A stretch of DNA of 64,000 nt, from the UHGV virus genome UHGV-0141727; one strand, given 5' to 3'. The stretch is from a virus. Position 1 is the first letter of the stretch, and each line of letters opens with the position of its first letter. The translations under genes and the position numbers were made by a program. Shown piece after piece: positions 2,843 through 59,995 of this stretch. A model generated the notes under the pieces. That model worked only from the letters and a program-made list of their open reading frames with translations, had not been told where the DNA came from and did no database searches.

Positions 2843-3802
2843 TCATCCCCGAAAGCCCTCCGGAATTGACCAGTCTTCCCGGTCAAATTCAGACCGATAG
2901 CCACGCTGTTTCATCTGGTCAAATGCTTCATTGATGGTTGCACATCCCTGGGAACCAGAATAATCCATAGAGAAATCCAGGGCGCTGGATCGTTTGGGCT
3001 TATTCACCGTGGTAGCACTACGTATCCATGCAAATTTTTTTGCCAGTTTTTCAGCGGTACGATACAGAGCCTGCCGTTTTGCGTACCCCTCGTCTGAACG
3101 ACGCTTTGCAGCTCTCGCTTTTGCCGCCGCCAAACAGTGGTTGGTATGTTCTTCCCTGATTACTGTTTTTTTATCCAGCAAGCCATTATCCGCTTGAGAA
3201 CTATCTGCTGGTGAAGCCTTTGGCTGAACCGCGCATGATCTTTCTCTTCTTTTGGCTATAGAGTGACTCTTATTTTCTATTGGCTGTTCATTTTGAACAT
3301 GGGGGGACTTGTTCAATTTGAACAGGGGGTGCCCAGTTTCAAAAAAATAACGAACCTTTGAAATCAACTGCTTAACCAGTTTTGTGGCGTTGGCAAATTT
3401 GATGCCCTGCTTACTCCCTATCTCCATTGCTACATGAATGAAGTGGAGAAATTGTGTTGTAAACCGGTACACGTTACACACCTGAGCATTGTTATTCGCT
3501 ACCTGATGCTGCTTAACAAGCATTCCGCACTTCGTCGCTTCGGTAAATGCCCGGCGCACAGTAGAAATACTGCGTCCTGTAATCTCGGACATATCAGCAT
3601 ATGAGCGACGGATCATGTATTCATCGGTAGCTCCTGCCAGGTTGGCGAACTCGGCAATAATGGCGCTATGTGAAGGGGAAAGAAAACCGCTATGACGAGC
3701 AAAAAAACTCAACTGATGACCTTTGATTTTTTTGTGGTATTCAGTGTTGTTTTTATACTCAGAAGTGTTGAAAGTTACTGGAACTGAATTTAAAATACTC
3801 AT
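2843..3802 (-). CDS. winged-HTH DNA-binding protein (possible replication or regulatory protein)
   Basis: ORF; HTH-like segment SEITGRSISTVRRAFTEATKCGMLV; 9-bp inverted repeat GTATAAATC/GATTTATAC in its promoter region 3828-3856. Confidence 0.35.
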   Translation of the reverse strand: MSILNSVPVTFNTSEYKNNTEYHKKIKGHQLSFFARHSGFLSPSHSAIIAEFANLAGATDEYMIRRSYADMSEITGRSISTVRRAFTEATKCGMLVKQHQVANNNAQVCNVYRFTTQFLHFIHVAMEIGSKQGIKFANATKLVKQLISKVRYFFETGHPLFKLNKSPHVQNEQPIENKSHSIAKRRERSCAVQPKASPADSSQADNGLLDKKTVIREEHTNHCLAAAKARAAKRRSDEGYAKRQALYRTAEKLAKKFAWIRSATTVNKPKRSSALDFSMDYSGSQGCATINEAFDQMKQRGYRSEFDREDWSIPEGFRG

Positions 3803-3864
3803 CAGATAGTTCCGTGAAAAATCTATCTACCGTATAAATCTATGCCAGTGGATTTATACACCCA

Positions 3865-3896
3865 AAAGCCGCTACTCAGCGGCTTTTGCTTTTTTG
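3865..3896 (+). terminator. intrinsic terminator-like hairpin AAAGCCGCT/AGCGGCTTT with T-tract on plus strand
   Basis: stem-loop followed by TTGCTTTTTTGG; no annotated plus-strand gene upstream. Confidence 0.35.
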
Positions 3897-4000
3897 GCAG
3901 TCGCTACCGGAGCAGTGACCGCGATCCTACTCGATCACGTGCCGTCGGATCAACAGTGTATAAAAACACACTGTGTTAGAAAATTAAGCTAGCTTTTAGC

Positions 4001-36424: not shown

Positions 36425-36708
36425 TATGACACCTGAAAAATTGCCTCACCATTAGCGATGACTGAGCCACAAGAAAGGGGATCTCCCACACAAACAACTC
36501 CTTTCCCGCCTATTACAAACCATGAGCGCGTCGATACGGCTGATCCGGGGTGCGCGCTATTTCCGTCTGTATGGCTGGGGAACGCTCCCCCATCTACAAC
36601 CACTGGCTTTCCATTTACGGTAAACCAGGAAACTGTTTCTGCTACAGGTCGCGGAGGGAATCCTCCATGACCAGAACAAACTGTGTCACTGGTCGCAATT
36701 GCACTCAT
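36424..36708 (-). CDS. PAAR-domain spike-tip protein
   Basis: 94-aa ORF with CSGHGG, VNGKPVVVDG and CVGDPLSCG motifs. Confidence 0.55.
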   Translation of the reverse strand: MSAIATSDTVCSGHGGFPPRPVAETVSWFTVNGKPVVVDGGAFPSHTDGNSAHPGSAVSTRSWFVIGGKGVVCVGDPLSCGSVIANGEAIFQVS

Positions 36709-36777
36709 CTAACACCTCCTTTTTCTTAAATCTTCTCCACTTTGTGATTTTCACTCTTCAGATTTCTTACTTCTCAT

Positions 36778-36957
36778 ATTTGTCTCTGATTTGTCTCAAA
36801 AGGGTATCATTGGTACATCATGTATCATCTAAGTCTCTTTTGTGTCTCTTTTGTGTCTCTAGTTTGATGCTTTTTACGCTATCTAACTTCTGGTCTTATT
36901 TTGTTTTCTCATATAAAATTCAATTCTTTCTCAAATGTGTCTCAGAAGTGGAGCAAT
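36778..36957. repeat. parC-like centromere/promoter repeats (TTTGTCTC and TTTTGTGTCTC units)
   Basis: at least five copies of TGTCTC-containing unit upstream of parM. Confidence 0.5.
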
Positions 36958-37917
36958 ATGATGCGCATTTTTATCGACGATGGTTCTACCAATATCAAAA
37001 TGCTGTGGGAACAAGACGGGGAAACTCGAACCCATATCTGTCCGAACAGTTTTAAACGTGGATGGTCCGCCACATTTGGCGCAGGAAAGCCGTTTAACTA
37101 CATCATTGATGACGAAAAATATTCATATGACTTGATCTCGCCGGATGTGCTGCCGACGAATAACGTTGAATGGCAATACAGCCCGCTTAATGTGCTTGCT
37201 GTTCATCATGCCCTGCTTACAAGTGGCATTGAGCCTCAAGAAGTGGAAATAGTTGTCACGTTGCCACTGGCAGAGTTTTATGACGACGACGCACAATACA
37301 ACATGAAAAATATTGAGCGGAAAAAGGCCAGCCTGATGCGACCAGTCACCCTTAACAAAGGTCAGGTTTTTACTATCAAAAAAGTGACTGTGCGCCCGGA
37401 GTCAATACCCGCAGGGATCGGTCTGTGCGACAGCCTTGTGCCAGCGCATTCTGTGCTTATTGTTGATCTTGGTGGGACTACTCTGGATGTGTCGATGGTC
37501 GCCGGGCAAATGACCGCCGTTTCTCGCGTATTTGGCGATTCTAATCTCGGCGTTTCGCTGGTAACTAAAGAGGTCAGACAGGCACTTGCAAAAGCGAATA
37601 CCGAAACCTCTAATTATAATGTCGATCAATTAATCATTAATCGTGATGATGAGGATTATTTGACCGACAATATTAACGATCCGTCTGCTATTGATGATGT
37701 TAAGAAAGCCATTTCGTCAAGCATAGAACGACTCCGTACACGCGTACTGGATGTGATCAGTGATTTCAAAGGATACACGCATGTTATGGTCATTGGTGGC
37801 GGCGCGCCGCTTGTTGCTGATGCTATCCGTGAGCAGGTAAACATTCGTGACGATAGGTTTTTCGTTGCTGATGATCCACAACTTGCTCTTGTCTATGGTC
37901 TAAAATCTATCGGTTGA
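36958..37917 (+). CDS. parM: actin-like plasmid segregation ATPase ParM (StbA)
   Basis: ORF 36901..37917; ATG 36958 with GGAG RBS; recalled resemblance to R1 ParM in N-terminal blocks (FIDDGSTNIK, ICPNSFKR, VIGGGA) (recalled from memory, not searched). Confidence 0.8.
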   Translation: MMRIFIDDGSTNIKMLWEQDGETRTHICPNSFKRGWSATFGAGKPFNYIIDDEKYSYDLISPDVLPTNNVEWQYSPLNVLAVHHALLTSGIEPQEVEIVVTLPLAEFYDDDAQYNMKNIERKKASLMRPVTLNKGQVFTIKKVTVRPESIPAGIGLCDSLVPAHSVLIVDLGGTTLDVSMVAGQMTAVSRVFGDSNLGVSLVTKEVRQALAKANTETSNYNVDQLIINRDDEDYLTDNINDPSAIDDVKKAISSSIERLRTRVLDVISDFKGYTHVMVIGGGAPLVADAIREQVNIRDDRFFVADDPQLALVYGLKSIG

Positions 37918-37927
37918 TGAGGTTGCC

Positions 37928-38293
37928 ATGTCTCAGGAACGTCGAAAAGTATTGTTTTATCTTCGTCCTGGTCTTAACGCCAGTGAGCAATATGCTGATG
38001 CAAAACTTGAGGGCCATCCATTAAGAGATCGCAATGATATGGCGCGCACAGCGATGCTTGCAGGTATCGCTCTTGGCGAGGTTGATAGCAGATTACCTCC
38101 CATGTTGGCATCGCTTTTATCCGGTGATAATAGCCCTGAAGTGATCAGAAAAATGCTGGTTTCATTTCTTGAAATTTCGCCTGAAGTTCGGGAAGCCTCT
38201 GAAGGAAACACCTCTGTCTCAGAGGATGTAAAAAAACCAGGCGTTCCGAAAAGCCGCTCTGCACAGAATTTGGCAAACTCACTCCCTGATTAA
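37928..38293 (+). CDS. parR: ParR (StbB)-like centromere-binding adaptor
   Basis: 121-aa ORF immediately downstream of parM. Confidence 0.55.
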   Translation: MSQERRKVLFYLRPGLNASEQYADAKLEGHPLRDRNDMARTAMLAGIALGEVDSRLPPMLASLLSGDNSPEVIRKMLVSFLEISPEVREASEGNTSVSEDVKKPGVPKSRSAQNLANSLPD

Positions 38294-38329
38294 CCAATCT
38301 ACATCTTCAAAGGCTGCAATTTGCAGCCT

Positions 38330-38578
38330 TTTTTATACCGTTATGGTTCTGGTTTGGTGCTCTTTTAGTACCAAAACGGTGTTGTTATGGTGCTGCTTTG
38401 TATCTGGTTCCACTTTGGGGCTGATTTCGTGTTAAACAGGATGCAACAGAGGGCAAATTTAGAGTGTTTAGTGTTATACTTTTGCAAAGCATAGTGACTC
38501 CACTATAGAGCCAAAACCGCATCAATAAGGCTTCTGTTTGGAACCAGTTTGATACCAAAATAACACCGAGGAACGGAT
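38330..38578. repeat. centromere-like repeats (ACGGTGTT(A/G)TT units) upstream of parA
   Basis: multiple direct and inverted copies of AACGGTG/GGTGTT motif. Confidence 0.45.
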
Positions 38579-39220
38579 ATGATTATATTGGTAGTCAGCC
38601 AAAAAGGTGGCTGTGGAAAATCAACCACAAGCGTAAACATCTGTGCGGAGCTTGCCCGCGAAAATAAGGATGTAGTGTTACTAGATGCAGACAAGCAAGG
38701 AACAGCTGCCCGCTGGGCAGCTGACCGTAACACGGCAGAGGTTTCTCCTGTAATTCATTGTGTCCAGAAGTTTGGTAATATTCGAGAAACACTTCTCGAT
38801 CTGGATAAGCGTTATGAATTTGTAGTTGTTGATACAGCCGGGCGCGATAGCAAAGAGATGCGTACAGGCATAACCGCTGCAGATATTGTGTTGGTCCCAT
38901 TCAGACCATCTCAACCAGATTTAGACACGCTGGCACACTTTGTTGAAGTGTTTGAAGAGGCTTTGGACCTGATGCCTAATCCTAGCATTAAGGCGTTCGC
39001 AGTCTTAACAATGGCCCCATCCAATCCGGTTGTGAATGAAACCAATGAGGCCAAAGAGTACCTAGCTGAATATCCGCAACTGAAGTTGCTGAAAACCATC
39101 ATTCGTGATCGTAAGGTTTACCGCGATTGCATGGCTGAAGGGAAGGGCGTTGTTGAGATGGACAACGGGAAAGCTAAAGGTGAAATCCAGATGTTGGTTA
39201 AGGAGTTATTAAGTGATTAA
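38579..39220 (+). CDS. parA: small Walker-type partition ATPase ParA (type Ib)
   Basis: 213-aa ORF with deviant Walker A KGGCGKST. Confidence 0.7.
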   Translation: MIILVVSQKGGCGKSTTSVNICAELARENKDVVLLDADKQGTAARWAADRNTAEVSPVIHCVQKFGNIRETLLDLDKRYEFVVVDTAGRDSKEMRTGITAADIVLVPFRPSQPDLDTLAHFVEVFEEALDLMPNPSIKAFAVLTMAPSNPVVNETNEAKEYLAEYPQLKLLKTIIRDRKVYRDCMAEGKGVVEMDNGKAKGEIQMLVKELLSD

Positions 39221-39500
39221 GCCTCGTAAATCGGTAAAAGCCCCCGAAGTAAAAGACCCCGATCTTGAACGCCGAATTGAGGATTTTGCCAGTAAGGCTG
39301 ATTTGGTGCCGGGTGAGCAACCAGAAGACAACAAAGTGCTCGATAAGGACGCCCCACGTGATTTTAAATCCATTCGTGTTGGCTTCAATGAATACGAGTA
39401 CCAGGTACTTGATGCGTTAAGCAAAAAGCATAATCGCAGCAAATTGAATATGATCCGCCATGCTATTCTCATGCTTGCAGAGTCTGAGGATACAAAATGA
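39213..39500 (+). CDS. ParG-like RHH centromere-binding protein
   Basis: 95-aa ORF overlapping parA stop; C-terminal RHH-like segment. Confidence 0.45.
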   Translation: MIKPRKSVKAPEVKDPDLERRIEDFASKADLVPGEQPEDNKVLDKDAPRDFKSIRVGFNEYEYQVLDALSKKHNRSKLNMIRHAILMLAESEDTK

Positions 39501-39506
39501 CGCCGG

Positions 39507-39610
39507 AATAACACCGTTTTGGTTCCATGTGTTATTTTGAAGCTATTTTGATGCCTTTTTAGTACCAGAATGGTGTTATTAGTGTACCGTAACGGTGCTT
39601 GTTTGATGTT
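39507..39610. repeat. centromere-like repeats downstream of partition operon
   Basis: AATAACACCGTTTTGG, AATGGTGTTATTAG and AACGGTG copies related to the upstream set. Confidence 0.4.
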
Positions 39611-39635
39611 ATAAAAGCCCCATATGGGGCTTTTC

Positions 39636-40478
39636 TTAATTAAGCGTGGCTATAATGTCGTTAGCTATCATTCGCGTTGATGCTTTACAGGATACAGAGC
39701 GACGGGATGGCATAGGATACACCTTGAAGCCATTGCCAACGTAAAGTTCGCGAATGTTAGGCGCTCCACTGTTTGTTATCACAATTTTCGCCCCGCGTCT
39801 GTGAGCATCTACCAGCAGCGACACCAGCCGTTGTTGATCTTCAAACCTAAAGCTATGCCCTGAGTAATTTGTAAATCCGGTAGTGTCGGGCAATGGTTCA
39901 TAGGGGGGATCGCAGAAAATCACATCATCATTCCCGGCAGCCTCAATTACACCAGCAAAATCGCCGGACACAAATTCCGAATACTTTGAAATATCGTCAG
40001 CCAGGAACGCCTCCATTTCCGCGAGAGGGAAGTGGGGTGATTTCTGCTTTCCATATCCGACGTTGAACTCTCCTTTACGGTTATAGCGAGTGACGCCATT
40101 AAAACAATGACGATTGAGATACAGGAACGCCGCTGCATGGTGAAGGGAATCATAAGCACCATTGTTGAATGCATTGCGAACATTCAAAAATGCATCAGCA
40201 GAGTTGTAATCCTGAAAAAAACGATATGCCAGTGTGATAAGAGAATGCCCTTCACGCTGCAATGTCTGATAGAAGTTAATCAGGTCATTATTGATATCGT
40301 TCAGCAGGTTGCTTTTAAATCCGGCATTAGTGAAAACAGCGCCACCTCCAACGAAAGGTTCTATCAACCGTTTTCCGTGGGGCAGGTGTTCGAAGATAAT
40401 GGGCAGTGCAGAAAATTTGCCGCCGACCCACTTAAAGACTGGGCGATCAAATTCGTCCTCCGAGCGAATACGTCGCAT
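39636..40478 (-). CDS. dam: Dam-like DNA adenine (N6) methyltransferase
   Basis: ORF 39636..40670; FKWVGGK, FLYLNR...RYNRKGEFNV and DPPY motifs; ATG 40478 places motif I near the N-terminus. Confidence 0.75.
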   Translation of the reverse strand: MRRIRSEDEFDRPVFKWVGGKFSALPIIFEHLPHGKRLIEPFVGGGAVFTNAGFKSNLLNDINNDLINFYQTLQREGHSLITLAYRFFQDYNSADAFLNVRNAFNNGAYDSLHHAAAFLYLNRHCFNGVTRYNRKGEFNVGYGKQKSPHFPLAEMEAFLADDISKYSEFVSGDFAGVIEAAGNDDVIFCDPPYEPLPDTTGFTNYSGHSFRFEDQQRLVSLLVDAHRRGAKIVITNSGAPNIRELYVGNGFKVYPMPSRRSVSCKASTRMIANDIIATLN

Positions 40479-40545
40479 ATGGCTGATAGTGGCTTCCGCC
40501 GCAGGACGATGATTGTCGCTATAAGAAATAAATTTAGCACCAATA

Positions 40546-41226
40546 TCAGCCACGGATTCCCTCCTTATTTGCTTCAAATACAGCTCTTGCAAAACCGTAA
40601 GGTGTCGCGCTACGAAAATTCGCTCTTTCAGGTCCTGGCGGTGCCTTGTGTATTCGGTTATCTGGATCACCTAACGACTCGTCGATTCGCGGAGTTGGCA
40701 TGATGAATCCTTGTCCGCTCCACAGGCATGTTTTTTTGGTGTAATTGTCTTCCTTGCAATATGCAGTGAAGTGATAAGGATGGAATATGTGGTCAGGTTT
40801 ACGCCAGAATGTCGATATTTGGCTGACCGGGTTTTCAATCATGTACGGGCAACCAATCATCTTTGCAATGTCGTAACACTGCCAGACAACCTGCATTGCT
40901 TTGAACTGGAAAACCGGATCTTTTTTCGCTTTATCTGCGAACCAGCGTGCGCCAGATACAGCCAGGTCAGTACATGGAGGGAAACCGGCTAAAAATACAA
41001 CTCTGTGCAAATTTTTCCGAAGGAAATTGTAGACCTCATCACTGTCAATAATTGCGCTGATACGTGTGAGTACAGCACCTGACTCCATCAATTGGCTGCC
41101 GGACTCCTGGTGTTGCGGATCGACAATGACTGCATCAATGCCGTGTTCCAGCCAGGGGGAAACCATATTCCCTGTATAATCACAAAGACTCACCGCCAGC
41201 GGTCGGTTATTAATGCTCTGCTTCAC
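40546..41226 (-). CDS. short C5-cytosine methyltransferase-like protein (motifs I, IV, VI present; no obvious target-recognition domain)
   Basis: ORF 40546..41352; GFPPC and ENP motifs; GTG 41226 with GGAGG RBS overlapping rdgC end. Confidence 0.4.
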   Translation of the reverse strand: MKQSINNRPLAVSLCDYTGNMVSPWLEHGIDAVIVDPQHQESGSQLMESGAVLTRISAIIDSDEVYNFLRKNLHRVVFLAGFPPCTDLAVSGARWFADKAKKDPVFQFKAMQVVWQCYDIAKMIGCPYMIENPVSQISTFWRKPDHIFHPYHFTAYCKEDNYTKKTCLWSGQGFIMPTPRIDESLGDPDNRIHKAPPGPERANFRSATPYGFARAVFEANKEGIRG

Positions 41227-51285: not shown

Positions 51286-52227
51286 TTAACTAATAATCCA
51301 GTCGGTTGCTGCTACATCTTCTGGCTGCAAATCAATCGCACAGATCTTACCGTCGCGAATGGTGCGCCAGTTTTTCCGTGAGCCTCTTTCGGGCCATACC
51401 CAGACACTTTCAGGCCAGGATGCTCGACGGCATACGGTTGCATACCCTGTTTTAATCTTCTCTCTGGCGGTATGCAACGACAGGTTTGCCTTTGGACTTT
51501 CAGGCACAGGATGGTGAATGGCCTGAAATAGCCCCATCTTGGGATGATACCAGCGTTTGTTACGTGGTTCTGCCTCCGACATAACCTGCTTAAAGGCTTT
51601 CCGGAAGGGGGCCAGGGCCACAATGGAACGTCGCGCAAGCAAACCGTCGGGAGTTAAAAACTCATGCGTATCAGTGGGTATCCGGTAAGCGTTGACCAGG
51701 TTACGGCATTTGGCTTCAGTCAGGCCACATTTCGCCGCCAACTGGCGGTAGCCAATGTAGCCTTCCGGAATATTGCCTTTCTTGATCTGCTCGACGGTTT
51801 CAGCGACTTTGGACACTTGTGCCGATACTTCGGCTACCTGGGCATTAACGGCGTTGATCCGGCGTTCATGCTCAAGATGCATTTGCGCCATTTCAGCCAG
51901 AATTTCGGCTTTTGATTTTAACTGTGCCCGGGCATTCTCCAGTTCGCGCCAGCGGTCCACCAGCCGGGCGGTGAATTCGGGAGAGAGCTGCGCGACGACA
52001 ATAATGCTGTCTCGTTTGCCTTGCTCGCCTTCAAAGACATAGACCGGATCTTTGACAACCTTCCCTAAGTTATTGATTCTTTCGACGAACTCATTTTGAG
52101 TTTCTCGGATGACACCGCTCGCCATCATATTGCGAATGGTACGTAAAACGTTGCCATGACGACTACCAACTAACTCTGCAATATCCAGGCTATTCATTGT
52201 AGCTTTTTGGGTGATAGACAGATTCAT
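51286..52227 (-). CDS. Rha-family antirepressor (Ant-like), intact copy
   Basis: 313-aa ORF with Rha N-terminal motif; paralog of frameshifted 1299..2203. Confidence 0.65.
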   Translation of the reverse strand: MNLSITQKATMNSLDIAELVGSRHGNVLRTIRNMMASGVIRETQNEFVERINNLGKVVKDPVYVFEGEQGKRDSIIVVAQLSPEFTARLVDRWRELENARAQLKSKAEILAEMAQMHLEHERRINAVNAQVAEVSAQVSKVAETVEQIKKGNIPEGYIGYRQLAAKCGLTEAKCRNLVNAYRIPTDTHEFLTPDGLLARRSIVALAPFRKAFKQVMSEAEPRNKRWYHPKMGLFQAIHHPVPESPKANLSLHTAREKIKTGYATVCRRASWPESVWVWPERGSRKNWRTIRDGKICAIDLQPEDVAATDWIIS

Positions 52228-52755: not shown

Positions 52756-52923
52756 TTATGCTTTTCTTTTCTTCTTTTGGGCTTGCTTGCAAGCGTAGGC
52801 CATTGCTTTAGCTTTCACTTCATCCAGCTTCCCGGTGATCACTTCTTTTCCAAGAGTGACAAACCAATCATAGCAACCGCCAGTGATGTTCTGGATTTGA
52901 AAGTTGAGGTAGCGAACGGTCAT
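52756..52923 (-). CDS. small basic protein (55 aa), not in supplied ORF track
   Basis: manual translation MTVRYLNFQIQNITGGCYDWFVTLGKEV...KKKRKA. Confidence 0.25.
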   Translation of the reverse strand: MTVRYLNFQIQNITGGCYDWFVTLGKEVITGKLDEVKAKAMAYACKQAQKKKRKA

Positions 52924-53254
52924 TTTGACACCCCCAGCGCGAGTAAAGAATGCAGATTATCGCGTGAGTGGCGGACAACGAGTGATGGGAAAAGACAGTA
53001 GCTGTTCATAGTGTAGTGACTCCTTGCTTTTGGAGCCGCCATCGACTGTTCCACGGTCTGGTGGCGGCGCAATAAAGGTTGGAACACCGTGAGTCAACGG
53101 GGGCTTTTCAGCCACCTATATTGCACCGCCATTGGTATGGCGGCGGCAATCATACGAAAAACCAAACGGTTTGTCTCAAAAAGTTGACCGGTGTACCAAT
53201 CGGTTGTGAATGTACAACGGTGAATTTCACAATTCAACTTAAAATGTTAGAAAA

Positions 53255-54102: not shown

Positions 54103-54713
54103 TGGCTATACGCATTATGAAAATTTACATCGCGGGTCCGATGACTGGTTATCCCGACTACAACCGCACAGCGTTTTTTTCGAAAGCAAAAGAGCTGATG
54201 GAGGAAGGGCATATTGTTCTGAATCCGGCGCTGTTACCTGCTGGCCTCTGCCAGAGCGAATACATGGATATTTGCCTTGCTATGGTGCGTTCGGCTAATG
54301 CGGTCTATTTGCTCAAGGGGTGGGAGGAATCAGTTGGCGCTCGTGCAGAGCACGAGCTGGCTCAAAAGCTGGGGCTGAATGTAATTTATGAGTCACCAAC
54401 CAACATTGAATGCCAGGTTGCTCCGCATATTTACCGGGAACTGGTCAATGCACTGCGTGATATCGCTGCTGTATATCACGGCACAGAACAGCTTCGTGAG
54501 CGTTTAGCCCATACCATTTCCTATTACCTGTCTGCATCTCATGAGCACAAGCTCCGTCAGAAGGTAATGATCAAATTTATCATGAGGTTATCGAAATCCC
54601 TGGCAAACGCCGATCCAAAGAATCCATTACCGAAAGTGGCAATGAATTACCTGAAGTCCTGCAACATTGTTTCTGAAGATGGCGTTCTTTTGGTTAGAAG
54701 GAGTTCTGCGTGA
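54102..54713 (+). CDS. DUF4406-like (nucleoside 2-deoxyribosyltransferase-like fold) protein with extra C-terminal region
   Basis: ORF 54075..54713; MKIYIAGPMTGYPDYN N-terminal signature. Confidence 0.5.
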   Translation: MAIRIMKIYIAGPMTGYPDYNRTAFFSKAKELMEEGHIVLNPALLPAGLCQSEYMDICLAMVRSANAVYLLKGWEESVGARAEHELAQKLGLNVIYESPTNIECQVAPHIYRELVNALRDIAAVYHGTEQLRERLAHTISYYLSASHEHKLRQKVMIKFIMRLSKSLANADPKNPLPKVAMNYLKSCNIVSEDGVLLVRRSSA

Positions 54714-55027
54714 GCTGGCGGGGATGGGGAAGGGCAGAAATCATGATACTCCGCCAGTGCGCCGGGACTATGACAGTCGAGGGTATTGGGAGACTGATCG
54801 GGCGTACCGGTGGTGCTGTCAGGACTAAAGCGCGGCAATTGCGGATCAGCATGATTCTGAAAGGTGACTTTCACCAGTCAGCCAAATACCGGCAGAGCGA
54901 TATAGAGCTGGCGCGGCAGCTTCATCAGTGTGGCGTTCCCCGCCGTGAGATCGCAGAAAAACTCGAAATGCCCTTGGGCATGATTAATCAGTACGTTTAT
55001 TTCGAAAGGAGAGTGCATGAAGTCTGA
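54710..55027 (+). CDS. putative HTH regulator
   Basis: 105-aa ORF, GTG start with AAGGAG RBS; HTH-like ELARQLHQCGVPRREIAEKL. Confidence 0.35.
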   Translation: MSWRGWGRAEIMILRQCAGTMTVEGIGRLIGRTGGAVRTKARQLRISMILKGDFHQSAKYRQSDIELARQLHQCGVPRREIAEKLEMPLGMINQYVYFERRVHEV

Positions 55028-58999: not shown

Positions 59000-59995
59000 A
59001 TGAGTGCAATAATCACACCTCATTTCGTAAACGGAGCTGGTGTGGCTGTCTTTCCGGTAGACAAGCCCACCAGTAACTACATTGGCGCAGGTCGCCGTTT
59101 CATTATCTCTCCACTTCCGCGTGAACAGGCTGAAAACACGCCAGATGGCGTAGTGGATCTGAATTATTCGCTGGTTGCCAACCAGTCTCTGAAACCGTTT
59201 TTTCAAAGCGAGCGCGTATTTAACGCGTTGGGCGGTGAAGATTCGCTTGTTCATTGGGTAAGTTCCAATATCCACGATTGCCAGGCGCACGATAAGCGCG
59301 ATTGCAGCCACCAGCTAACCACTCATTTCTATAACGGCTCTGCCGTTCGCCTGTGCTGGAAGCATGATGCGGAATACATGATGAAGGGGTACAGCAAGCT
59401 GGACGACCAGTTATCCCTGAATCGTGCCAACTGGGTTATGAACTGGGCTGCGAGCGAGTTAAAACTACCGCCAGAACGCGATCTGAGCATGGTTGAACTC
59501 ACTTTTTGGGCCATTCGCCGAAATCTTAAAGACGAGCTGCCAGATGAAGCCGGTCGCATTGCATTTTGTCAGCCAAAACAGGAAATCCCTACCGGCACAC
59601 TGAAAGAATCGGATATCACCTGGGAGCACAGCACCCGTGAGCTGGTGGACATAACCGCAGAGCAGATCGTCAACCTGTCTGTAGATGAGGATTCCGGCCT
59701 GCTGTATATGCGCCGACCAAAAGCGGTTCTCGGTAAAAGCCCGACTTATCTCCGGTTTGTGATTTCTCGTCCGTGCATCGGATGCGGTGGCAAAGTTAAT
59801 CACCCGTTCATGTACCGCGCCCGCTCGTTAAACGAACACGATCGCTGGGCCGTTCCTCTTTGCGATGAATGCGCCAGAAGCGCAGAAAACGATGTCCGTG
59901 CATGGGAAAAAGCACATGGCATACGCCTTTACGTAGCCGCTAACCAGCTTTTCGACTTCGCCATCGAGCGCGGAGTGATCACGTTCAATAACTGA
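59000..59995 (+). CDS. hypothetical protein with C-terminal Ref-like Cys/His cluster
   Basis: 331-aa ORF; PCIGCGG...H...VPLCDEC resembles the C-terminus of 53255..53830. Confidence 0.35.
   Translation: MSAIITPHFVNGAGVAVFPVDKPTSNYIGAGRRFIISPLPREQAENTPDGVVDLNYSLVANQSLKPFFQSERVFNALGGEDSLVHWVSSNIHDCQAHDKRDCSHQLTTHFYNGSAVRLCWKHDAEYMMKGYSKLDDQLSLNRANWVMNWAASELKLPPERDLSMVELTFWAIRRNLKDELPDEAGRIAFCQPKQEIPTGTLKESDITWEHSTRELVDITAEQIVNLSVDEDSGLLYMRRPKAVLGKSPTYLRFVISRPCIGCGGKVNHPFMYRARSLNEHDRWAVPLCDECARSAENDVRAWEKAHGIRLYVAANQLFDFAIERGVITFNN

Follow-up and report, generated by a model that had tools for sequence, protein, structure and literature searches.

We analyzed a pair of overlapping genes and the repeats around them in the virus genome UHGV-0141727, a stretch of 64,000 nucleotides that we call the window. 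The genes encode a 213-aa ParA-type ATPase and a 95-aa protein. They follow directly after the parM and parR genes of another partition system, and all elements that a first-pass annotation of this locus had described were found in place. From upstream to downstream, the locus comprises the following features:

38334-38444, no strand assigned: upstream array A (parC1-like), about 11 hexamers starting at 38334, 38345, 38356, 38367, 38378, 38389, 38400, 38406, 38417, 38428 and 38439; z-score of the autocorrelation at a lag of 11 bp (lag-11 z) 4.3, over 38335-38440
38473-38481, + strand: inferred parAB promoter, an extended -10 element TGtTATACT without a good -35 element
38540-38567, no strand assigned: upstream array B (operator-like), with GGAACC at 38540, GATACC at 38551 and AACACC at 38562; lag-11 z 3.8, over 38530-38575
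38579-39220, + strand: parA, a 213-aa type Ib deviant Walker A ATPase that has no helix-turn-helix (HTH) domain at its N-terminus
39213-39500, + strand: parB-like gene for a predicted centromere-binding protein of 95 aa, with a GTG start
39499-39610, no strand assigned: downstream array (parC2-like), eleven hexamers starting at 39499, 39510, 39521, 39528, 39539, 39550, 39561, 39572, 39583, 39594 and 39605; lag-11 z 3.8, over 39500-39612
39613-39634, no strand assigned: palindromic hairpin, inverted repeat AAAAGCCCCAT/ATGGGGCTTTT; folding free energy (dG) -14.6 kcal/mol, z -3.3

We read 38334-39634 as a self-contained type Ib ParABS cassette and as the latter half of a tandem double par locus that begins with a type II ParMRC system, and we put the probability of this reading at roughly 85%. 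The defining features of type Ib systems are a small ParA that lacks an HTH domain, a small ribbon-helix-helix (RHH) partner whose tail is flexible, and upstream repeats that also act as operator (PMC3074162, PMC5016525). Our assignment is based on the fit of ParA, its RHH partner and the array architecture to these definitions, while the additional downstream array is the reason why we liken the layout to those of pB171 par2 and pESBL. A second partition system, with a small ParA and an RHH protein between flanking repeats directly after ParMR, had already been proposed here by the first-pass annotation, and the proposal was supported on every point that could be tested.

The N-terminus of ParA, MIILVVSQKGGCGKST, is an intact deviant Walker A motif, and this small protein lacks an N-terminal HTH domain, as is typical of type Ib. 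Its top match in the PDB is ParF of TP228 (4dzz), whose alignment spans residues 3-211 at ~30% identity (E 1.5e-18), and the NCBIfam model ParA_partition (NF041546) covers it end to end with 162.8 bits; Pfam matches include AAA_31, CbiA, MipZ and VirC1. We aligned the protein with TP228 ParF, a pB171-type ParA, an IncK ParA and eleven closer relatives. In this alignment, K9, G10, G11, G13, K14 and T16 of the segment KGGCGKST (residues 9-16) are invariant, as are D38 of the A' motif and D85 of Walker B, and the A' residue D36 is kept in at least 90% of the sequences. Inactivating mutations in the Walker motifs, which the first-pass annotation had named as the finding that would speak against two working systems, were looked for and not found: the catalytic residues of ParA are all intact, and ParM retains its phosphate loops DDGSTN and DLGGTT, as read from the translation. 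Both genes of the cassette are under strong purifying selection, since the ratio of nonsynonymous to synonymous divergence (dN/dS) is 0.02-0.06 for parA and 0.08-0.25 for parB. As a side observation, ParA carries a two-residue insertion in a variable loop (LDLMPNPS versus LDL--NP, 38972-38977, residues ~132-133), which is missing from all 14 other aligned sequences and present in the ParA of phage D6, which has the same sequence.

The parB-like gene lies directly downstream, its GTG start (39213) being placed 8 nt inside the end of parA and preceded by AAGGAG 9 nt upstream. The predicted layout of the 95-aa protein also corresponds to that of a type Ib partner: an N-terminal tail opening with M-I-K-x-R is followed by a conserved helix (residues 16-29), a linker and a C-terminal RHH domain with a strand at ~51-58 and helices at 60-72 and 77-92. 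This fold becomes apparent only with an exhaustive profile search and a deeper alignment, whereas single-sequence searches are uninformative. A word-indexed search with the 95-aa protein returned close relatives only, and in the PHROGs collection the protein falls into phrog_9169 (labeled 'unknown function') and additionally gives a weak Arc-like match. A PDB match to AcrF10 (E 0.54) was discarded as spurious.

The exhaustive profile search yielded 123 cluster representatives of 55-130 aa, which align in an N-terminal M-[IV]-K-x-R, a subsequent IExFAxxAD segment, a variable linker and the C-terminal block FKxIRVPFNEYEYxxL...GRSKLNxIRxAI. Among the 77 aligned relatives, 27 match the NikA-like RHH model, 20 RHH_1, 13 DUF6290, six RHH_7 and five TraY, and the family profile is weakly similar to CopG and HP0222 from the strand through helix 2. 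An AlphaFold2 model computed from the 77-sequence alignment reached a predicted local distance difference test (pLDDT) score of 83.7, with values above 93 at residues 50-90, while the model from a shallow alignment was poor (pLDDT 57). The RHH fold that had been assigned at first pass is thus borne out by these matches of the family and by the model, and at family level the data support a C-terminal RHH domain combined with an N-terminus that is basic and conserved. Close relatives all have the RHH strand segment RDFKSIRV unchanged, even though their arrays diverge in sequence.

The repeats on both sides of the operon, which had been described by the 8-mer ACGGTGTT, are real and non-random: with up to one mismatch allowed, the ~420 bp of intergenic DNA beside the operon contain five copies of this 8-mer, compared to 59 in the other 63.6 kb. 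They are better defined as GGTACC-like, pseudo-palindromic hexamers (GRTRYY, complement RRYAYC) in an 11-bp phase, separated by T- or A-rich 5-bp spacers. The lag-11 z rises to 6.3 when the entire upstream region is considered, 22 of the 25 units fit GGTRYY at five or more of six positions, and seven of the eight strict hexamer pairs at exact 11-bp spacing in the 64 kb lie within the parAB flanks. The spacing is broken once in array A, by a 6-bp phase shift (38400/38406), and once in the downstream array, by a 7-bp shift (39521/39528). An alternative 17-bp repeat model, ACC-N5-GGTG, gave 11 matches versus 4.9 expected across the window, a number reached by five of 100 shuffles, and was replaced.

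The element TGtTATACT between arrays A and B may represent the extended -10 promoter of parAB, and elements similar to GTTATACT occupy the equivalent place in most relatives of the D6 type. Arrays A and B flank this putative -10 element, so that upstream repeats overlap the promoter region at the sequence level, as described for type Ib systems. Array B follows the inferred promoter and precedes the ribosome-binding site, a position which is likewise occupied in distant relatives. The hairpin at 39613-39634, where parB and the convergent dam gene meet, is likely a bidirectional terminator. No Rfam family was detected across 36600-39800.

The high identity of the locus to pEC361_3 and D6, together with P1/D6-type phage neighbors, identifies the window as a D6-like Escherichia coli phage-plasmid. 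Positions 36700-39700 share 99.5% identity with the E. coli plasmid pEC361_3 and ~87% with phage D6, and the genes around the par locus (capsid, PAAR/upfC, dam, rdgC, baseplate) are of the P1/D6 type. A total of 122 plasmid-collection records match this segment, and nearly all are non-mobilizable plasmids of ~90 kb from Escherichia, Salmonella or Shigella. Within E. coli, the parA/parB cassette was found on plasmids only, 85 of the 5426 complete genomes having it. The locus sits amid phage structural genes, the D6 plasmid replication gene being ~11 kb away. Downstream of the cassette, the Dam methylase open reading frame (ORF) at 39636-40670 (- strand, 344 aa, GTG start) exceeds its 918-nt RefSeq counterpart in pEC361_3 and runs into the next ORF, and its true start is probably internal.

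The module is not confined to these elements. A scan for the ParB family, with one genome per species, uncovered 25 loci in diverse Proteobacteria, mostly Gammaproteobacteria, with sources including Sodalis, Serratia, Rahnella, Chimaeribacter, Kangiella, Kushneria, Hahella, Aeromonas, Pseudomonas, Marinobacter, Nitrotoga and Methylococcales. A ParA lies directly upstream of the ParB-family gene in 24 of the 25 loci, with 57-70% identity to the ParA of the window at 23 of them and a weaker 36% at one (L045). The sole locus without a detectable ParA homologue upstream is on a contig of Candidatus Methylobacter oryzae (L051, 1416-1559). ParM was found within 2.5 kb at none of the ParB-family loci. 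The flanks of these relatives contain the same motif in the same phasing, often on both sides (for instance TTTTTGGTACCAAAACGGTGCCGATTTAGTGCTTG in Hahella), and across 20 loci the density of pairs in strict phase is 14.6 times higher in the module flanks than in the remaining sequence (29 in 8.6 kb versus 22 in 95 kb; Poisson p ~7e-24). On other plasmids, the ParA/ParB-family module adjoins replication genes. One such case is a plasmid of Enterobacteriaceae bacterium Kacie_13 (CP045667, 1-5890), where the module, with a ParA 67% identical to that of the window, stands beside RepB; this plasmid additionally has a type Ia ParA/ParB pair, which is another kind of double-par combination.

These data also bear on the question whether the ParA/RHH pair serves partition at all. 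The pair could instead be a VirC1/VirC2- or NikA-like DNA-processing accessory, or have a role in lytic development or superinfection exclusion, as might be suggested by the Pfam match of ParA to VirC1 (1.9e-12), by the NikA-like and TraY matches of 27 and five of the 77 family members, and by the location among phage structural genes at a distance from the replication gene. Yet the top full-length matches of ParA are ParA_partition and ParF, with VirC1 being weaker, and the NikA and TraY matches stem from the common RHH fold. Moreover, 120 of the 122 matching plasmid records are typed as non-mobilizable, and neither this typing nor the gene tables viewed around the locus contained a relaxase, which a DNA-processing pair would be expected to accompany, along with an oriT or T-DNA border and transfer genes. 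The module's place beside rep genes on other replicons, as well as the combination of promoter-overlapping phased arrays with a second downstream array, which is the architecture of characterized type Ib systems (PMC7602700), further argue for partition, and we consider a non-partition function very unlikely.

Phage D6 (NC_050154) has the same locus in the same position, orf60 and orf61 following StbA/StbB-type genes. Its ParA protein is 100% and its ParB protein 98% identical to those of the window, while the flanking arrays and parMR are strongly diverged and glnS is inserted downstream. The D6 annotation lists orf58 as a StbA-like partition protein, orf59 as a partition protein, and orf60 as 'ParA-like... 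possible ParA partitioning function'; it calls orf61 hypothetical and leaves the centromere unannotated. Among D6-like relatives in general, the arrays differ considerably in sequence and retain both hexamer and phasing. In D6 and close relatives, glnS, which encodes glutaminyl-tRNA synthetase, lies between the downstream array and a dam-like methylase gene (6575-8530 in L001, the D6 locus). The window-type backbone is without glnS (39501-39640), so that the parB array runs right up to the terminator that also serves dam.

The divergence of the arrays is relevant to a further explanation, according to which the repeats are only the operators of an autoregulated operon, or unrelated structural DNA, with a downstream array that is fortuitous or simply DNA of the dam/glnS junction. 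Array B and part of array A do flank the inferred promoter, the downstream array is only 45% identical between the window-type and D6-type backbones, and some distant relatives have few strict downstream hexamers. However, the D6-type downstream region, although different DNA, again has GGTGCACC, GGTTCC and GTACCA units, and the downstream arrays of the more diverged D6-like loci L017, L018 and L020 are very regular. In addition, operator and centromere are the same repeats in type Ib systems (PMC3074162, PMC5016525), and pB171 and pESBL are documented examples of dual arrays (PMC7602700). That these repeats serve as operators alone or as structural DNA is, in our view, highly improbable.

The adjacent type II system precedes the cassette on the same strand and comprises the following features:

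36772-36946, + strand: parC-like iterons, (T)TGTCTC units with 11-bp spacing, lag-11 z 4.3
36958-37917, + strand: parM, a 319-aa actin-like ATPase (Pfam StbA_N 2e-69, ParM C-terminal domain 9e-56)
37928-38293, + strand: parR, a 121-aa adaptor (Pfam Plasmid_stab_B 3e-14)
38309-38337, + strand: intrinsic terminator after parR, with a 10-bp stem, a 3-nt loop and U6 (dG -14.5 kcal/mol, z -5.2)

The iterons upstream of parM form groups at 36772/83/94, 36834/45/56 and 36929/40, and their motif is unlike the parAB hexamers. The post-parR hairpin (38309-38331 plus U-tract) is kept in all D6-like relatives and divides the parMR transcript from parAB. Together with the hairpin at 39613-39634, it encloses the cassette between strong predicted terminators. 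A regulatory region shared by parMR and parAB was considered and rejected, as there are no phased GRTRYY pairs near the parM promoter.

The histories of the two systems within the D6-like elements are strikingly different. Between the window and D6, we obtained the following values, where dS is the synonymous divergence:

parM: 80% identity, dS ~2.9 (saturated)
parR: 58.5% identity, dS not computable
upstream intergenic region: 75% identity
parA: 99.7% identity (2 differences in 642 nt), dS 0.014
parB: 95.5% identity, dS 0.17
downstream array: 45% identity

Across the whole window, the median identity to D6 is 79%, and the longest of the few patches with at least 97% identity is parAB (38601-39400). 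In 20 IMG/VR loci, parA alleles of 99.5-100% and of ~92% identity each occur on both backbone types. This discordant divergence and the presence of parA alleles on both backbones lead us to conclude that homologous recombination has recently transferred the parA/parB coding block between D6-like lineages, as one instance of the mosaicism general among phages, and the sequence pattern indicates breakpoints of this allele exchange within the intergenic arrays. Other short patches with at least 97% identity to D6, at 1001-1300, 3201-3900 (which falls in a 319-aa ORF on the - strand), 51901-52200, 52801-53100, 54401-54800 and 59001-59500, indicate further mosaic exchange.

The double par locus, by comparison, is old in the D6-like clade, judging from the presence of both systems in every D6-like relative examined (L001-L021), even where synonymous sites of parM are saturated. 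Both systems also occur together in 121 of the 122 matching plasmid records. At one further locus (L022), ParA is present and parM is absent. The suggestion in the first-pass annotation that the pairing might reflect a recent cassette acquisition is therefore not upheld, because the pairing is conserved clade-wide and only the exchange of parA/parB alleles is recent. The comparison of genomes that had been proposed to reveal the ancestral system found both to be long-standing in the clade.

One might also suppose that parAB is a redundant or decaying passenger and that ParMRC alone maintains the prophage. Plasmids with two systems may lean mainly on one of them, as SCP1 does with parABS1 versus parABS2 (PMC13245405), and RefSeq names the two gene products only 'AAA family ATPase' and 'hypothetical protein'. 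The low dN/dS values and intact catalytic residues, the clade-wide retention of both systems despite saturated parM dS, and the active exchange of parA alleles that nevertheless remain intact all run counter to decay, and we give this explanation hardly any credence.

The pairing of a type II with a type Ib system at one locus has precedents, which the first-pass annotation had left unnamed when it correctly described two partition systems of different types back to back. Type I RHH and type II systems occur together in 971 PLSDB plasmids (PMC13245405). A case in point is the double par locus of pB171, where par1 is a type II parMRC and par2 a type Ib system with parC1 and parC2. Functional par2 contains both of these sites (PMC4270457), its repeat arrays lie upstream and downstream of parAB (PMC7602700, PMC4270457), and the window has likewise a type II system (36958-38293) directly followed by a type Ib system (38579-39500) on one replicon, with eleven phased hexamers downstream of parB in the position of parC2.

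For direct sequence comparison we used the locus of plasmid pCE10A, which we take to be pB171-type from its architecture and from what is known of pB171. ParA has 213 aa in the window and 214 in this locus, the partner proteins 95 and 91 aa. Identities are 43% for ParA, 42% for ParM (full length) and 33% for ParR, whereas the ParB proteins cannot be aligned. The pB171-type locus expresses parMR and parAB divergently from a shared central parC1 region, whereas the two operons of the window stand in tandem, both on the + strand, and are parted by a terminator, each having arrays of its own. The repeats differ as well, with TCA(C/T)A-type units in pCE10A versus GGTACC-like hexamers in the window. 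Given the tandem and terminator-insulated arrangement, the distinct iterons and the lack of a shared regulatory region, regulatory cross-talk in the style of pB171 would not be expected here.

Arrays upstream and downstream of the operon are documented for pESBL, pB171 and pSM19035, and the ParB of pESBL has been shown to bind octamer arrays on both sides (PMC7602700). In the IncI1 pESBL type, represented by an IncK2/Z relative (L024), a small ParA with 44.5% identity to that of the window is followed by a ParB of ~100 aa. The repeat unit is the octamer GATAACAA in pESBL versus a GGTACC-like hexamer in the window, and pESBL is conjugative with a single par system, whereas the window has two. 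In TP228, the ParF partner ParG combines a flexible N-terminal tail with a C-terminal RHH domain, and short degenerate boxes serve as centromere and operator (PMC3130281, PMC5016525). The tetramer boxes of TP228 parH lie upstream only, in contrast to hexamer arrays on both sides in the window, and the conserved M-[IV]-K-x-R occupies residues 1-5, compared to a mid-tail arginine in ParG. Profile comparison of the window ParB family with pB171-type, IncK-type (L024) and Burkholderia ParB-like proteins gave no significant similarity, and no sequence match to ParG was found for the window ParB.

From the type Ib precedents, we infer all steps of a mechanism that could operate at this locus. Dimers of the RHH protein would bind the GGTACC-like hexamers cooperatively, one helical turn (11 bp) apart and thus on one face of the helix, and would assemble partition complexes on the two arrays that border the operon upstream and downstream. 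Autoregulation of parAB would come about when sites around the extended -10 promoter, and downstream of it, are occupied. ParA-ATP dimers are predicted to coat the nucleoid through non-specific DNA binding, and the basic N-terminus of ParB (K3, R5) and/or helix 16-29 may touch ParA and boost ATP hydrolysis. The resulting ParA gradient would equi-position the prophage-plasmid copies ahead of cell division. With different iterons and a terminator in between, the type Ib system could work in parallel with, and independently of, ParMRC.

Several observations weigh against this assignment. The 95-aa protein itself has no Pfam match, and its sequence bears no detectable likeness to ParB of the pB171 or IncI type. 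The ParA score stays just under the 180-bit equivalog cut-off of NF041546, which is why the protein is named only 'AAA family ATPase'. The hexamers are degenerate, with the strict pattern fitting only 12 of ~25 units, and a simple sigma-70 consensus scan did not call the putative parAB promoter. DNA binding, ATPase stimulation and plasmid stabilization by this family are predictions from sequence and precedent. With ParMRC present, the share of parAB in stability could be small in the laboratory, just as SCP1 parABS2 makes a small contribution beside parABS1 (PMC13245405).

The first-pass finding is in essence correct but ordinary, because plasmids such as pB171 were already known to combine a type Ib with a type II system. 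Details that are new and useful comprise the ParB family with its conserved GGTACC-type, 11-bp-phased motif, the tandem insulated layout, and a parA history that is discordant with the flanks. The known 'type Ib plus type II' theme is extended by a tandem variant and by a predicted new ParB/centromere specificity, and the overall picture stays unchanged. For annotation, the gain consists of two complete, non-overlapping partition systems with defined cis sites. The ParB-like gene, a 'hypothetical protein' in both RefSeq and D6, and the two arrays are currently unannotated, and this gap concerns 85 of the complete genomes of E. coli. Clinical E. coli, Shigella and Salmonella carry D6-like phage-plasmids, which annotation often mistakes for plain plasmids, and the sites described here offer concrete targets for incompatibility-based curing or typing.

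A more far-reaching interpretation would join these observations. The 95-aa protein would represent a widespread, as yet unnamed lineage of type Ib centromere-binding proteins, whose GGTACC-like, 11-bp specificity would have been maintained from Enterobacterales as far as Methylococcales and Marinobacter, while parA and parB would be 'public goods' of co-resident phage-plasmids, with incompatibility set by array architecture and ParMRC. We regard this interpretation as speculative and, in its entirety, unlikely. If true, it would offer a testable way to understand when related phage-plasmids can share a host and when they shut one another out. For the D6-like elements themselves, the presence of two partition systems may explain their stable inheritance at low copy number.

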